This document shows positions 769-7,638 of a DNA stretch of 64,000 nt, piece after piece. The notes below the pieces were generated by a model. The model did no database searches. It was not told the origin of the DNA and was given only the letters and a program-made list of their open reading frames with translations. This stretch comes from Escherichia phage vB_EcoM_FB, in sequence record MT682711.1; one strand, 5' to 3'. The position numbers were made by a program, and so were the translations under genes. Each line of letters opens with the position of its first letter. Position 1 is the first letter of the stretch.

Positions 769-1728
769 TTATTTTTCGAAAGGACGAATTAAATGATGAT
801 TGTCTTGGAATCGCTTGATGTAATCATTTTCACCCAGAGATTTATACATATTCACTACGGCTTGATAGTTTTCCCACGCGTATTCGCGGAACCATCCGGA
901 AGTGATAGAGGTGCACACTTTCTCAAGAGCCATATAAAAACTTAACGACGGTGAAATATTGAAGTCGTTAGGAACCTGTGAACGTTCTAGGGCCAGGACA
1001 CAAGTTTCTTCGTATACGCCAGCCAGTTTAATAGCTTCAGGCAAAGCTTCAAACTTCTCACGAGAGGTCATGACTTCAGACCCATCTTTCATATAAAAGG
1101 TATATGCAGGGCGTCCAGCCAATGCCACAGCTTCATGGATAGAGTCGTGGTCCAGAGTATAAATTGTGTCATTAAAGAATGAAGATTTGTTAACGTCCAG
1201 TTTAGGATGAGAATAGCTCAACGTTTCTTTCTGACGTTGCAGCATGATTTCCTGGAGCTCTTCGTTCAGGGTTACACCTTTATTACGAAGGTATTTGATG
1301 TGGGACATAGTTTTCAAGAAGAACGGATTATTCTTCAGGAAACGATGAGAGGTTTTAATAGCCAGACAGATATCAGGAGTAGCCCAATAGAAACCTGTCA
1401 TACGATCTTTCTTAATATGATTTTCAGCATATTTCAGAAGACGATAACTTGAGGTGAAGTCTTCGTCTTGAAGCTCACCAGTGATTTCTCGTACGTTAGT
1501 CAAAGCGCGAACGATATAAGCTTCAAAATAGGTTTCTTTACCGTTGTGCATACATTTGAAAGCCTGGACATCAGGGTTGTCTACGTGTACATGGGCACCA
1601 AACATCTGTGCTTTAAAATTATTCCATGACCCCTGGTCGGCAATGAAATCCCAATCAGAATTTTCGATATACTTACTTTCAATAAGACCTGCGTTATGTA
1701 ATGCACGAGAACCGATAACTAGCATCAT
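769..1728 (-). CDS. hypothetical protein (319 aa), possible Pol-beta-superfamily nucleotidyltransferase
   Basis: ORF track; N-terminus VIGSRALHNAGLIESKYIENSDWDFIA fits a G-S...D-x-D nucleotidyltransferase signature by eye only. Confidence 0.6.
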   Translation of the reverse strand: MMLVIGSRALHNAGLIESKYIENSDWDFIADQGSWNNFKAQMFGAHVHVDNPDVQAFKCMHNGKETYFEAYIVRALTNVREITGELQDEDFTSSYRLLKYAENHIKKDRMTGFYWATPDICLAIKTSHRFLKNNPFFLKTMSHIKYLRNKGVTLNEELQEIMLQRQKETLSYSHPKLDVNKSSFFNDTIYTLDHDSIHEAVALAGRPAYTFYMKDGSEVMTSREKFEALPEAIKLAGVYEETCVLALERSQVPNDFNISPSLSFYMALEKVCTSITSGWFREYAWENYQAVVNMYKSLGENDYIKRFQDNHHLIRPFEK

Positions 1729-1749: not shown

Positions 1750-1986
1750 TTAAATGTCCCAGCGGGCGCTATCATATTCATCCCATAGAGCTTCATGGGA
1801 GTTACAAACGATAGGAGCAATGACTCCGTTAATATCTTCGTTGTAAGGGCAGATAGTACAAAATGCATCTTCGAAACGAACACCGTAATCAGACTTCTTA
1901 TACGCAATGTCAAAAATCTTTTTAAACTTTTCACGAGTAATGGTTTTAGCAACAACTTCAGTACCAATACTTTCGTAATAAATCAT
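1750..1986 (-). CDS. hypothetical small protein (78 aa)
   Basis: ORF track; GAGGAG RBS upstream; preferred over overlapping low-complexity frame 1725..1967. Confidence 0.5.
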   Translation of the reverse strand: MIYYESIGTEVVAKTITREKFKKIFDIAYKKSDYGVRFEDAFCTICPYNEDINGVIAPIVCNSHEALWDEYDSARWDI

Positions 1987-1996
1987 GGTTATCTCC

Positions 1997-2197
1997 TCAG
2001 ATAGGACCGTAAAGGTATGTCCAACGTTTAACGAAAGAAACTACTTCTTCCAAGGTATCGAAGACCTCTGTAGTGCCTGGAACGCCATCGCCACTGATGG
2101 TTACTTTAATGCCATCTGAAACTTCCTGGAGGTTAATCTCCAGTTGGTTGGCTTTGGCTTCGTTCAGAACTTTGATTAATTCGTTTGCGATAGACAT
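1997..2197 (-). CDS. hypothetical small acidic protein (66 aa)
   Basis: ORF track; AGGAG RBS upstream. Confidence 0.55.
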   Translation of the reverse strand: MSIANELIKVLNEAKANQLEINLQEVSDGIKVTISGDGVPGTTEVFDTLEEVVSFVKRWTYLYGPI

Positions 2198-2261
2198 TTT
2201 TATTCTCCTGTTCTGATAACGTGATTGTCATCAGTTGATAAGAGAATAGTACCACAGTTTT

Positions 2262-2591
2262 CTAGAGTTGTACATCACTTCTGCAATATTCTAAAAATAA
2301 TTTATTGTTGTCAACTGTATCCCAACGTCGCCAAGATGGATTCCAGACCAAAGCGTTGTCACCACAATCATTGAGCTTAAAATGGTCATAGTACATAGCT
2401 ATATGTCTAGTCTCGTCACCAGAGAACCCTAGTATAGGCTCGCCGTGGGTGTGATACATATGATGGTGCATTGAGAGGTCGCATTTATAAAACATTTCAC
2501 GTTTACCGCGAATGAACAAGAATGCTTGTCCGTTCATATAAAATTCTTTATCTGTTTTTAAAAGATATTTGAATACTGAATCTTTGTGCAT
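2262..2591 (-). CDS. hypothetical His-rich protein (109 aa)
   Basis: ORF track; GGAGG RBS; HHHMYHTHGE cluster. Confidence 0.55.
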   Translation of the reverse strand: MHKDSVFKYLLKTDKEFYMNGQAFLFIRGKREMFYKCDLSMHHHMYHTHGEPILGFSGDETRHIAMYYDHFKLNDCGDNALVWNPSWRRWDTVDNNKLFLEYCRSDVQL

Positions 2592-2628: not shown

Positions 2629-2853
2629 TTAACAGCTACTTGGATACCAGATTTTACCATCAGCTTGAGCAACGAAGGTACGACCAGCTTCTTCACCATA
2701 ACAAGAGCTATTCAGCCAATCTTCGAGACGAACTTCGCCGTCATAATCATCTAGCTCAACACCAAAATCCTGAGCAGAAGCCATATCTTTTACTTTCTTA
2801 TACAGTGCAGCCAGTTCAAGAGCAGCTTTTTCTAATTCATTAATATCAGACAT
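2629..2853 (-). CDS. small acidic protein, paralog 1 of a 4-member tandem family (74 aa)
   Basis: ORF-track frame 2629..3003 trimmed to the ATG at 2853 (Met51, AGGAAA RBS) because the upstream part overlaps the next paralog; C-terminus ...GKIWYPSSC. Confidence 0.6.
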   Translation of the reverse strand: MSDINELEKAALELAALYKKVKDMASAQDFGVELDDYDGEVRLEDWLNSSCYGEEAGRTFVAQADGKIWYPSSC

Positions 2854-2863
2854 TTTTATTTCC

Positions 2864-3076
2864 TTAGCAAGACATAGAAGAAGTAAACCAGAAACCATCG
2901 CCATCTGGGATACCGTAATCATCACGGACCCATTCGTAATCATCATATTCCGGATTCTTTGGAGAAATGTATTGTCCACGACCGGAAACATGGAACTCTT
3001 CACCTGTTTCGTCAGCCACGGACTGGCCTTTACGTACTAATTCGTGGATTTGTTTTTCAATTTCATCAATAGTCAT
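2864..3076 (-). CDS. small acidic protein, paralog 2 (70 aa)
   Basis: ORF track; RBS AAGGTAA; C-terminus GFWFTSSMSC. Confidence 0.65.
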   Translation of the reverse strand: MTIDEIEKQIHELVRKGQSVADETGEEFHVSGRGQYISPKNPEYDDYEWVRDDYGIPDGDGFWFTSSMSC

Positions 3077-3085
3077 TTTATTACC

Positions 3086-3367
3086 TTAACATTCAGAAGA
3101 AGAGGACACCCATCCACCTTTTTCAAGGTCTGTGGTGTAGTCGTGGGTGTTAACGATAGCGTATTGAGGCTCACCGTATTCTTCCCAGTGGGCAAGGTCA
3201 GCTTTCAAGGCGCCAGGAGAATAATAGTCACCGCCCATACCGCGAGCAGGGTATATATTAAAATGAGTCTCATATTTGTTTGCAATTTCCTCGGCGTGGC
3301 GAATAGCCTTATGGATGTCATTTACTGCGTTGGCCAGTTCTTTATTTTTACTGTAATCATTCATCAT
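3086..3367 (-). CDS. small acidic protein, paralog 3 (93 aa)
   Basis: ORF track; RBS AAGGAAA; C-terminus GGWVSSSSEC. Confidence 0.65.
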   Translation of the reverse strand: MMNDYSKNKELANAVNDIHKAIRHAEEIANKYETHFNIYPARGMGGDYYSPGALKADLAHWEEYGEPQYAIVNTHDYTTDLEKGGWVSSSSEC

Positions 3368-3376
3368 AACGTTTCC

Positions 3377-3667
3377 TTAGCACAATGCCGAAGAGGAGAC
3401 CCAAGCACCAACTGTAACGACGCCGTTTTCAACTTCACCGCCGTTGTTTTCAATTTCATCTTTAAACCACTGGGAGCATTCATAGCCGATAGGGTAATAT
3501 GTACGACCTGAACCATAATCGCCCGTACCGAATTGAATACCATACTTATCAGCAATTACTTCACATTCATGTTCGATGGTATCCACTTTATTCAGAAGAG
3601 CATAGATAGCTTTTTCTGCAGATTTCTCGTCGTTGTGTTCTGGGATTTCAATTTCAATTTTATTCAT
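3377..3667 (-). CDS. small acidic protein, paralog 4 (96 aa)
   Basis: ORF track; RBS AGGAAT; C-terminus GAWVSSSALC. Confidence 0.65.
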   Translation of the reverse strand: MNKIEIEIPEHNDEKSAEKAIYALLNKVDTIEHECEVIADKYGIQFGTGDYGSGRTYYPIGYECSQWFKDEIENNGGEVENGVVTVGAWVSSSALC

Positions 3668-4017
3668 GATTTACATTCCTTAATAAAGGTTTCAAGGTCA
3701 TTACATTTGGTTTGTTTTACATACTCATTATACTTAGCCATAGCTAAAGCATAACTCTTTTTACGTGGCTTGTTTAATTTATTAGTTTGGACAACATCAA
3801 AGACTAATGGGATAAAGTATCCTACTAAAGATGGAACCCAAATCCACGCAAGACTCATATCTTCAAACGGATGACGAGGCATACCATTAATAATCCCGCC
3901 AACAAGGAATCCTATTATTCCTGCAATCATACTAGTAGCAATGCCGAGGAATAAGGAAATAGAGATATCGTAATCTTCTAATGCATAACCTGGATCGGTT
4001 TTACTAGGCTTATACAT
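3664..4017 (-). CDS. hypothetical membrane protein (two hydrophobic segments)
   Basis: ORF-track frame 3664..4035 trimmed to second ATG (4017), which has an AAGAGG RBS; hydrophobic stretches IATSMIAGIIGFLVGGII and IWVPSLVGYFIPLVF. Confidence 0.55.
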   Translation of the reverse strand: MYKPSKTDPGYALEDYDISISLFLGIATSMIAGIIGFLVGGIINGMPRHPFEDMSLAWIWVPSLVGYFIPLVFDVVQTNKLNKPRKKSYALAMAKYNEYVKQTKCNDLETFIKECKS

Positions 4018-4595: not shown

Positions 4596-5189
4596 TTACT
4601 TAAGTGAATTGATGTAGTCGTCGATATCAGCAGAAGTCGTATCCATTCCAACTTGTGGGCCTTTAAACGTTTCTACACGCATCAAGGTATCTTCAATATC
4701 AATCTTAGTCAGTGCAGCGATTTCAACAACATCATCGGCAGTAGCAATACCAAGGGCAGCCATATTACGAGTTTCACGGATATACTCGAGCTTAACGGCT
4801 AGTTCCTGACGAGAGTCATCAAGTTCCTTGACCTTAAGCTTAATTTCATTACGCATTTCAACATAATCATCAGCTTTCTTACGAAGTTGAGTAGCCGTAC
4901 GACGATAAAGGAGGCCCAGTTTAGCATGCACCTGAACATCGGCGCCTTCTTTAATCAGCTTACGAATTTCACGTTCTTTAGAACTAGCCAGTTGGTCCTT
5001 TTCATTAGCGAGTTCACGAATACGTTTTTCTTCATTCACAGACTTAACATGGGCAGTCTGGAGCTCAGTGATTTTATCAATCAGAGTAGAAGCAGCTTTA
5101 GTATACTGGTCTTCGATTGACAGGTTCTGAGCCATTGCGGTACCCAGTTTAGAACGGATGAATTCAACGATTTTCTTTAAAGTGTTCAT
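4596..5189 (-). CDS. hypothetical coiled-coil protein (197 aa)
   Basis: ORF track; charged heptad-like helices; downstream of the early promoter at 5232-5261. Confidence 0.6.
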
Positions 5190-5231: not shown

Positions 5232-5261
5232 ATTATACCCTGTCCTCTGAGGTTTGTAAAC
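5232..5261 (-). promoter_or_regulatory. T4-type early promoter with -10 in a hairpin loop
   Basis: minus strand GTTTAC-18bp-TATAAT; inverted repeat GAGGACA/TGTCCTC flanks the -10. Confidence 0.5.
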
Positions 5262-5264
5262 ATT

Positions 5265-5663
5265 TTATTTCATTTTTGCGAGGCAAATTTCATTGGCTTC
5301 CCATTGAGCTTGCTTAATAATAGCTTTGGATACAGGAGCCCTTTGGCCATAAGTTTTTGACGTTGAGAGAACAATACATTTGTTTGCCTCATTATGCCAG
5401 CCCCGTGATTTTTCGCCATGAGTACCTTTAACTACAGCTGACACCTCAACAGAGCAACCACCATCAGAAATCTTGGTTTCGACAATCCATTCATTTCTTT
5501 CGACAGCTTCAAGTTCTAATCTAGTTTTTTCTTCATACATGGCGGCCCAATCAGTTTTTGCCAGGTTGAAAGTGAGAGCTTTCTCCAATTCTTTGGCAGC
5601 TTTTTGTTGTTCAGGCGTTAATGAATTGTACAACTCTTGCATTTCTTTATCTTCGATATTCAT
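5265..5663 (-). CDS. hypothetical protein (132 aa)
   Basis: ORF track; GAGGAG RBS. Confidence 0.6.
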   Translation of the reverse strand: MNIEDKEMQELYNSLTPEQQKAAKELEKALTFNLAKTDWAAMYEEKTRLELEAVERNEWIVETKISDGGCSVEVSAVVKGTHGEKSRGWHNEANKCIVLSTSKTYGQRAPVSKAIIKQAQWEANEICLAKMK

Positions 5664-5688: not shown

Positions 5689-5718
5689 ATAATATCTTAA
5701 TCATGAGCCCATGTAAAC
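5689..5718 (-). promoter_or_regulatory. T4-type early promoter inside a 10-bp inverted repeat
   Basis: minus strand GTTTAC-18bp-TATTAT; inverted repeat ATGGGCTCAT/ATGAGCCCAT. Confidence 0.5.
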
Positions 5719-6409: not shown

Positions 6410-6760
6410 TTAATATTCTTTTAAAGAATCAATATATTCACGGCGTTTACGCCACAAATCAATTGCTTCATACGCGGATTCAGCATTTCGAATTAGCCGG
6501 CATTTATGTAAAGACTTATGATTTTGATATTGTGTAGATAACGGAATTGTATCTAAAAGGTCTTTACGATCAAAATATTCGTAACCATCTAAACCAAATG
6601 AACGATTTTTGAGAAATTGCCAATGACCATATTCGTTTTCGACATAAACATAATCTGCATGCTGATAAAGCAAATTAATTACACGTTCAGAAATAACAGT
6701 ATCATTATGATTAAAATAGAATGTTAAATCATGAACTACTAAATAAACATTACCTTTCAT
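6410..6760 (-). CDS. hypothetical protein (116 aa) inside the tRNA cluster
   Basis: ORF track; GAGGA RBS 16 nt downstream of the tRNA-Arg 3' end. Confidence 0.5.
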   Translation of the reverse strand: MKGNVYLVVHDLTFYFNHNDTVISERVINLLYQHADYVYVENEYGHWQFLKNRSFGLDGYEYFDRKDLLDTIPLSTQYQNHKSLHKCRLIRNAESAYEAIDLWRKRREYIDSLKEY

Positions 6761-6778
6761 ATTTTCCTCACTTATAAT

Positions 6779-6854
6779 TGGTCGAGGCAGTAGGGATCGA
6801 ACCTACGACCTAGGACTTAGAAGGTCCTTGCTCTTCCTTCTGAGCTATGCCCCG
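6779..6854 (-). tRNA. tRNA-Arg (anticodon TCT)
   Basis: hand-folded cloverleaf: acceptor CGGGGCA/TGCCTCG, D-stem GCTC/GAGC, anticodon stem AGGAC/GTCCT with loop CTTCTAA, T-arm GTAGG-TTCGATC-CCTAC, encoded CCA. Confidence 0.85.
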
Positions 6855-6857
6855 TAA

Positions 6858-7526
6858 TTAAAATTTCATTTTTCGACCTTTAAACCATCCTTCTGGAATT
6901 GGGTCAGTTTTCTTAATACGTTTAGAAACTTTTTCATCTAATGAATGAATCCACATCATACCAAATTGGGAATTCTTTTCGCCCTGTTGATGTTTATTTC
7001 TGGCGTGAGATTCTTTCATTTTATTAATAGTTTCAGGAGTATGATGCTTATTTAAAAATCTGCTATTATTTAAAAATTTTTCCCTGTATTCAGGAGTTGA
7101 CCACAAGCGTTTAAATACATTTGAACCATGTTTACGATATTTTTCTTGAAGTAAAATATCACTTTTAAAACGTGACTTAAACGATTTAGCTCCTTTTAAA
7201 CTAGCGTCTTTCTTCTGGTTTAGCATCCCAGGAATATTTATATGGTCCCAACCACCTTCACCACCTAATTTCAAATTATAAACATCAGGGCGCTTTAAAA
7301 ACTCTTCAGTCACAATATTCTTTTCTGACTCAAACATAGAGGTTTTATCGTCAAAGAACTCTCTAATATTTCTTTAGAAAAATTTTCTATACCATACTTA
7401 TCTTGGGCTCTTTTTAATAATTTACCAGAACCCATATATCCATCATCTAAATTTTCGGTAGAATGAGCGCCTATATAGATTTTTATTATTAATTTTATTT
7501 GTTATTTTATAAATGTAATGGAACAT
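6858..7526 (-). pseudogene. GIY-YIG homing endonuclease disrupted by two frameshifts
   Basis: three frames together rebuild a protein collinear with the intact paralog at 12737-13249 ([15 protein letters not shown] / [26 protein letters not shown]... / ...NLKLGGEGG...); AGGAG RBS before the first ATG. Confidence 0.6.
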
Positions 7527-7567: not shown

Positions 7568-7638
7568 TGGCCCTGGGTGGAATCGAACCACCATCCAGCG
7601 ATTATGAGTCGCTCGCTTGACCGTCCAGCTACAGGGCC
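7568..7638 (-). tRNA. tRNA with CAT anticodon (Ile2-type as in T4, or Met)
   Basis: acceptor GGCCCTG/CAGGGCC perfect, anticodon stem AGCGA/TCGCT with loop CTCATAA, T-arm GGTGG-TTCGATT-CCACC; CCA not encoded. Confidence 0.8.

Follow-up and report, generated by a model that had tools for sequence, protein, structure and literature searches.

The 64,000-nt stretch of Escherichia phage vB_EcoM_FB that we analysed (MT682711.1; hereafter the window) carries four consecutive small genes on its minus strand, here called P1 to P4, and these form one module with a nucleotidyltransferase (NTase) gene that lies on the same strand, about 0.9 kb further downstream. Both parts have been inherited, moved and lost together; no evidence in the study is stronger than this pattern of occurrence and position. 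The phage is a T4-like, JS98-like Dhakavirus, and the array sits between an e.3-like gene and e.2, in a gene block without a T4 counterpart. An earlier note made from the sequence alone (the original prediction) had described the array without the NTase gene and had suggested DNA mimics or other host-takeover factors under selection for changing targets; the finding corrects the tempting view of fast-evolving DNA mimics. We favour the view that the small proteins are cognate partners of the NTase that dock on it through their shared C-terminal tail, most likely as acceptor substrates, and would give this view an even chance of being right. That the proteins are partners is much better supported than the direction in which one acts on the other.

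Homologs of the NTase with 40-97% identity served to anchor 80 loci from IMG/VR, among them environmental and ~360-kb contigs, in which the linkage was followed. In 66 of the 80, a hidden Markov model of the small family finds one to four members, all sharing the strand of the NTase gene, nearly always upstream of it and mostly within ~2 kb; inspection for the motif adds nine loci with small members directly upstream. Only one locus of the 80 (L028) is without any small member, and no other gene family was found to be linked across the set. Within Straboviridae the pair occupies three sites: the e.3/e.2 region, as in the window; the position after nrdD in Aes508; and the position after gp41 in Acj9 and Konradin. 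Both partners also occur together in Providencia phage PSTCR6 and, beyond Straboviridae, in Otagovirus PE09 (as many as five members followed by the NTase gene), Phapecoctavirus Schickermooser (three members) and Menderavirus BUCT608, where the order is reversed and the members lie downstream of the NTase gene. T4 lacks both the small genes and the NTase gene. Overall, the linkage looks obligate. An association with tRNA genes was set aside as evidence: a tRNA gene is found within 6 kb at 22 of the 80 loci, but mostly in syntenic enterobacterial T4-like phages, and the association is not robust at distant loci.

The array itself is largely as first described. ORF calls and sequence both confirm four consecutive minus-strand open reading frames (ORFs) of 70-96 aa at the positions originally given, and each gene has its own ribosome-binding site, with spacers of 9-10 nt in which the TAA stops run into a Shine-Dalgarno sequence (TAAGGAAA or TAAGGTAA). 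Upstream of P1 lies an e.3-like membrane-protein gene, whose stop codon shares an ATGA with the P1 start. For P4 the automated ORF call reaches back to a GTG at 3003, but the plausible start is the ATG at 2853, which follows TAAGGAAATAAAA. Of the description of the products as acidic and aromatic-rich, the first half stands, with isoelectric points (pI) of 4.16-5.02 and net charges of -7 to -11; the second is not distinctive, since their aromatic content (10-13%) lies within that of neighbouring genes (8-16%).

The four genes are real paralogs with a common C-terminal motif, as had been proposed, and their similarity is not confined to the last residues. All four match the PHROG 899 profile over their full length (E 1.7e-21 for P1, 1.8e-20 for P2, 1.2e-13 for P3 and 4.3e-10 for P4), and after removal of the last 10 residues P1, P2 and P3 are still significantly similar to one another (z 3.3-5.6). 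The pairwise similarity of P4 under the same trimming is weak (z 0.3-2.8), and it is the match to the profile that places it in the family.

The tails read exactly as first reported, GAWVSSSALC (P1), GGWVSSSSEC (P2), GFWFTSSMSC (P3) and GKIWYPSSC (P4), and the Cys at the last residue holds in all four. This sharing exceeds chance expectation, because the motif is present in exactly 4 of the 919 stop-to-stop ORFs of the window and only 26 of the 919 end in Cys at all. An exhaustive profile search extended the family to 322 clusters at 50% identity, and tail statistics were taken from the best 150 of these (148 representatives). In these best 150, protein length ranges from 65 to 138 aa, and the match almost always reaches the protein's own C-terminus. 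Cys is the exact last residue in 139 of the 148 listed representatives; most of the others have one extra residue after it and a few are truncated. Among the 139, the tail reads G-G-W(97%)-x-[S 65%/A 20%/P 13%]-S(99%)-S(99%)-x-x-C, with a W-to-C distance of 7 in 135. An internal W..SS..C copy occurs in 12 of the 139, and 40 representatives have at least two W-x-S-S elements. The original prediction had offered metal binding, a disulfide or a modification as a role for the terminal Cys. Neither an intramolecular disulfide nor a metal knuckle can be its general role, as it is the sole Cys in 61% of representatives; it may still mark a modification, or metal or disulfide chemistry from one molecule to another.

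In most members of the family an N-terminal helix and a Gly-rich aromatic loop (consensus YGMGGxYY) precede the tail, and the median pI is 4.46. The AlphaFold2 model of P1 has a predicted local distance difference test (pLDDT) score of 91.6 and a long helix spanning residues 14-42 (H14-42); confidence drops to pLDDT 74 in the last residue block, which would fit a tail that is flexible or exposed. The proteins are small and acidic, as the suggestion of DNA mimicry had it, but the predicted fold matches nothing among solved structures, DNA mimics included. Searches of the small proteins and the NTase against Pfam, NCBIfam, PADLOC and PDB sequences, with single sequences and profiles, returned no named family beyond PHROG 899 and DUF7275/DUF7277, and for the small family itself neither a Pfam family nor a solved structure was found. 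The orthologs (RB69 ORF139c, ORF137c and ORF136c; JS98 gp126-gp129) are annotated 'hypothetical protein' in database records.

The large protein carries the catalytic signature of a pol-beta NTase and is predicted to adopt a MenT/AbiEii-like fold. Its motif I/II residues G6, S7, D25 and D27 do not vary in any lineage of the comparison, and K125/K139 and D193/D195 are also invariant; the catalytic motif III Lys and motif IV Asp of MenT proteins are K137/D152 or K189/D211. E69 is invariant in A4 and varies in Acinetobacter and Menderavirus members. The predicted structure resembles solved MenT toxins, with MenT1, MenT3 and MenT4 as best neighbours, while no Pfam match to AbiEii/DUF1814 was seen at E<=5 in any of 62 NTase family members, nor was there a PADLOC or NCBIfam match. 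At its C-terminus the enzyme carries an additional conserved helical region, whose invariant residues are rich in H, D and E, and it is highly conserved, with a ratio of nonsynonymous to synonymous substitution rates (dN/dS) of 0.04. Four residues outside the catalytic core, R165, H174, C272 and R281, are kept in 13 of 13 partner-bearing lineages and replaced in 3 of 3 partner-less ones, where the core is kept as in all others; they are a candidate docking site for the tail. Database records call the NTase hypothetical, with a few stray labels such as 'putative nucleotidyltransferase' in Konradin. Truncated, partner-less NTases of ~250-263 aa without these four residues are encoded by Streptomyces phage Faust (region 2357-4136 of L096) and Gordonia phage Abscondus (region 3309-7480 of L097). 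The gene adjoins an RNA ligase gene in Faust and lies 1.2 kb from a tRNA cluster in Abscondus, neighbours that hint at an RNA-end activity of the core enzyme.

Tandem diversification under selection for changing targets, which the original prediction had put forward, is not supported by the comparison with relatives. Against nine Dhakavirus relatives dN/dS is 0.16 for P1, 0.14 for P2, 0.27 for P3 (the most variable) and 0.07 for P4, whose amino-acid identity among them is 99%; the array genes are thus constrained coding genes under purifying selection. The paralog types recur as orthogroups in Dhaka-, Mosig-, Slopek-, Karam- and Tulanevirus phages and outside Straboviridae, each with its own signature: GRTYYP...GAWVSSSxMC for P1, YSPGxLK...GGWVSSSxEC for P2, EYIP...GFWFxSSMSC for P3 and DWLNSSCYGEE...IWxPSSC for P4. 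The two-motif type seen in P4 is also found in Aeromonas, Klebsiella and Phapecoctavirus phages. The four genes are old paralogs and not rapidly diversifying ones. JS98-like phages have a fifth type as well, a 65-aa protein that ends in SWVSSSYEC (JS98 gp127, RB69 ORF136c) and is encoded between the P2- and P3-type genes (6592-6789 in the JS98 locus, L001; 4466-4663 in L005). It is missing from the window, and array size is thus four or five in close relatives.

How the partners might work together can be sketched as follows. The exposed tail would be a short docking and acceptor motif recognised from its free C-terminus, in which the Trp serves as an anchor while the two Ser and the Cys, as the chemically active residues, enter the active-site cleft of the NTase. 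In our leading sub-hypothesis, the NTase would then place a nucleotide or a nucleotide-derived group on a Ser or the Cys of the tail, and one enzyme could charge several small acidic proteins whose divergent bodies would do different jobs early to mid infection. We favour acceptors because the most conserved residues are nucleophiles, because each enzyme has one to five distinct partners, because the motif can repeat internally and because pol-beta NTases that modify small proteins are known. Nucleophile conservation and one to five small genes per enzyme fit acceptors better than an inhibitor that acts 1:1. A fuller version of this idea, which we regard as unlikely but as having a real chance, is a tagging system: a MenT-fold NTase would covalently nucleotidylate a G-W-x-S-S-x-x-Cys-COOH tag, or build a nucleotide-derived group on it, at Ser or the terminal Cys of one to five small acidic effector or carrier proteins of a new fold, in at least four myovirus lineages, early to mid infection and possibly for counter-defence.

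Several observations weigh against acceptors, or against a strict partnership. The best structural neighbours of the NTase, MenT1, MenT3 and MenT4, modify tRNA 3' ends and not proteins, and the small upstream partner of MenT1 is an inhibitor. Four further loci of the 80, found by inspection for the motif, have members that are distant or on the opposite strand. The NTase family is the broader of the two, with 733 phage records against 377 and 282 for two small-protein tblastn queries, and truncated, divergent NTase variants occur without a partner in Streptomyces phages, Gordonia phages and one Vibrio phage; no family members were detectable among the small ORFs beside these partner-less genes. 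The overall divergence of the partner-less lineages also confounds the pattern at R165, H174, C272 and R281. Finally, the P4-type tail is shorter, with a W-to-C distance of 5.

Given the MenT precedent, the small proteins could instead be antitoxin-like or pseudo-substrate inhibitors that block the nucleic-acid-binding cleft of the NTase, as the 68-aa MenA1 blocks MenT1, with the tail carboxylate and thiolate plugging the metal site. The NTase would then be the effector, acting for example in tRNA 3' end extension or repair, and the small proteins would restrain or time it. MenA1 is mostly helical, is encoded directly upstream of MenT1 and blocks its active sites; MenT is also the best structural match of the phage enzyme, and in most lineages the small genes precede the large one. 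The strong negative charge of the small family (median pI 4.46) would suit occupation of a tRNA-binding surface, and, on general chemical grounds, metals are bound well by a Cys at a free C-terminus. Yet each NTase comes with one to five individually conserved paralog types, where one antitoxin per toxin is the norm, Menderavirus has the genes in the opposite order, the hosts of the module are virulent phages in which the NTase is highly conserved (dN/dS 0.04), and neither protein matches MenA, MenT or DUF1814 by sequence. The residues conserved above all others are Ser, Ser and Cys; in MenA1 it is a hydrophobic helix face instead. Inhibition is the main rival to the acceptor view, and we consider it possible but unlikely.

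Two further explanations were considered. If, in line with the original prediction, the small proteins took over the host or countered its defences independently of the NTase, as mimics of DNA or RNA or by inhibiting host proteins, they would only happen to share an early/middle anti-defence neighbourhood with its gene, and the Cys tail would serve to bind a target of their own. Their acidity, a probable expression from a middle promoter and a hyperplastic region beside tRNA genes would all suit such factors, as would the NAD-salvage, Sir2, ADP-ribosyltransferase and Nudix genes around the module in distant phages; DNA mimics are moreover diverse in fold, so that a missing structural match does not exclude mimicry. 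However, the two stay together where every other neighbour differs, both after transfer between unrelated families of phages and after a move to another site within Straboviridae, and T4 lacks both genes together. No structural similarity to any solved mimic was seen, and a 99% conserved Ser-Ser with a strictly terminal Cys, kept in phages of hosts from Aeromonas to Pseudomonas, points to a conserved phage-encoded partner over variable host targets; we find this explanation improbable. Hardly likely at all, in our judgement, is a metal or redox function in which the proteins assemble through their long N-terminal helices into homo- or hetero-oligomers and their terminal Cys residues jointly bind a metal or Fe-S centre, or form intermolecular disulfides, as a cofactor or sensor subunit, perhaps with a contribution from C272 and H174 of the NTase. 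The single invariant Cys per protein (the only one in 61%), the long helix H14-42 of the model, the co-variation of the invariant C272 with partner presence and the nrdD, thioredoxin and glutaredoxin genes that adjoin the module in Aeromonas phages would agree with it. Such oligomers are harder to reconcile with a paralog number that varies from 1 to 5, leave the invariant Ser-Ser and Trp unexplained and would be built from proteins with no other conserved metal-ligand residues; the link to redox genes, too, is seen in some lineages only.

The array probably belongs to the pre-replicative programme, in agreement with the early-type expression originally suggested. Such expression is likely because a MotA box lies upstream and no late promoter precedes the array: the late promoter sequence TATAAATA is absent upstream, and within the first 8 kb the minus strand matches it only at 7242. 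The candidate middle promoter (Table 1), whose function is inferred from its perfect match to the consensus, is kept at the same offset in seven Dhakavirus loci. Further upstream, two strong sigma-70-like promoters on the minus strand are probably early, with transcripts directed at the array. The one at 5232-5260 (TTTACA-17-TATAAT, 11/12) lies just downstream of a 132-aa ORF (5265-5663) and upstream of the e.6-like gene; that at 5689-5717 (TTTACA-17-TATTAT, 10/12) lies upstream of the 132-aa ORF. The e.6-like gene (4596-5189, minus strand) encodes a highly conserved 197-aa protein of PHROG 1203 with a dN/dS of 0.06 and weak coiled-coil-type Pfam matches only. A 159-aa ORF (6858-7337, minus strand) is flanked by minus-strand genes for tRNA-Arg(tct) (6779-6854) and tRNA-Met(cat) (7568-7638); its LHE83 counterpart is annotated as a homing endonuclease, and the ORF in the window has no Pfam match at E<=0.01.

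Three small ORFs stand between the array and the NTase gene in the window. They do not belong to the small family and are lineage-specific insertions; Aeromonas, Pseudomonas and Phapecoctavirus phages lack them at this place. In Schickermooser (L092, 3423-3438) the depositors predicted a terminator between the last small gene and the NTase gene, which could raise the amount of small protein relative to enzyme; P4 in the window is not followed by an equivalent hairpin. In distant phages the module repeatedly lies near a pair of genes resembling phosphoribosyl pyrophosphate (PRPP) synthetase and nicotinate phosphoribosyltransferase, and near NAMPT, Sir2, ADP-ribosyltransferase and nudE genes, and these nicotinamide adenine dinucleotide (NAD) and ADP-ribose surroundings may be an anti-defence neighbourhood. 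Two other identities for the small proteins were rejected. They do not look like T4 capsid-targeted internal proteins, as the N-termini of the paralogs differ from one another and are unlike MKTYQEFIAE, and no late promoter precedes the array; nor do they look like precursors of ribosomally synthesized and post-translationally modified peptides (RiPPs) of the lanthipeptide type, as they are folded domains of 70-96 aa (pLDDT 91.6) and no RiPP enzyme family in Pfam was seen among the neighbours.

Table 1. Positions of the module and its neighbouring features, in the window unless another locus is named.
Feature	Location	Strand	Description
P1	3377-3667	-	96 aa, pI 4.35; 'GRTYYP...GAWVSSSALC' type; RB69 ORF139c / JS98 gp129 orthogroup
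P1 tail	3380-3403	-	W-V-S-S-S-A-L-C; 8-residue form
P2	3086-3367	-	93 aa, pI 5.02; 'GMGGDYYSPGALK...GGWVSSSSEC' type; RB69 ORF137c / JS98 gp128 orthogroup
P2 tail	3089-3112	-	8-residue form
P3	2864-3076	-	70 aa, pI 4.26; 'YISPKNPEYDDYEW...GFWFTSSMSC' type
P3 tail	2867-2890	-	8-residue form
P4	2629-2853	-	74 aa, pI 4.16; motif twice (internal DWLNSSC, terminal IWYPSSC); JS98 gp126 orthogroup
P4 internal motif copy	2701-2721	-	D-W-L-N-S-S-C, read from sequence; kept in P4-type orthologs of many genera
P4 tail	2632-2649	-	W-Y-P-S-S-C; shorter, 6-residue form
NTase partner gene	769-1728	-	319 aa; Pfam DUF7277 + DUF7275; pol-beta-type nucleotidyltransferase, predicted MenT/AbiEii-like fold
Candidate MotA-type middle promoter	3727-3753	-	TATGCTTTA-N12-TATAAT; perfect consensus match; 86 nt upstream of P1 start, within 3' end of e.3-like gene
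Three small ORFs between array and NTase gene	1750-2591	-	109, 66 and 78 aa; other PHROGs, no Pfam match
NAD/ADP-ribose neighbours, Acj9	L093: 5283-7936
NAD/ADP-ribose neighbours, BUCT608	L094: 1-170, 5961-6575
NAD/ADP-ribose neighbours, Konradin	L095: 4749-5066
NAD/ADP-ribose neighbours, Schickermooser	L092: 6700-7515
NAD/ADP-ribose neighbours	L098: 5625-6347
NAD/ADP-ribose neighbours, JS98	L001: 11075-11524

Sequenced phage genomes with the NTase number 733, and the small family falls into 322 clusters at 50% identity; both are annotated only as 'hypothetical' or as domains of unknown function (DUFs). Seen as a module, these scattered orphan genes become a testable two-component system, with an invariant terminal Cys that follows Ser-Ser and Trp at a fixed spacing as the handle. 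Were the small proteins acceptors, the module would provide a new kind of protein nucleotidylation tag; were they inhibitors, it would be the first MenAT-like system of NTase and partner in virulent phages, with a bearing on phage tRNA manipulation and repair and on the defence arms race. In the searchable literature nothing relevant was found on the DUFs, PHROG 899, the RB69 ORF names, phage MenT-like NTases, small proteins with a C-terminal Cys or a module of this kind.

Among known systems, MenAT1 and the wider MenT/AbiEii (DUF1814) group come closest, in that the phage NTase likewise has the pol-beta motif I/II residues and that, as with MenA1, the gene for a small, largely helical protein directly precedes it on the same strand. 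The phage module differs in having no DUF1814 sequence match (62 members, E<=5), in its extra conserved C-terminal helical region, in its occurrence in virulent phages and in its one to five partner paralogs in place of one. The partners themselves have a beta-sheet core and the invariant W-x-S-S-x-x-C terminus, whereas MenA1 has no such terminus.

Several NTases of the pol-beta fold modify small proteins: GlnD acts on PII, MntA on HepT (a type VII toxin-antitoxin system), and CitX and MdcG on the acidic carriers CitD and MdcC at a Ser. The likeness of the phage module to these is in logic only, with one NTase and a small partner on which it acts, or would act, at a conserved hydroxyl residue; in CitD and MdcC the partner is acidic and modified at Ser. 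No Pfam match to the CitX, MdcG or GlnD families or to an HD domain was seen in the 62 members at E<=5, and neither the sequence nor the fold comparison returned a match to GlnD, CitX, MdcG or MntA; in the phage module, moreover, the acceptor motif would be the extreme C-terminus including the Cys, and the acceptors would be multiple paralogs. With the DNA mimics Ocr, Arn and ArdA the small proteins share their size, their strong acidity and their probable place among pre-replicative phage proteins, but the family is defined by its Cys tail and Gly-rich loop, not by a pattern of surface charge, and it comes with a tightly linked enzyme gene.

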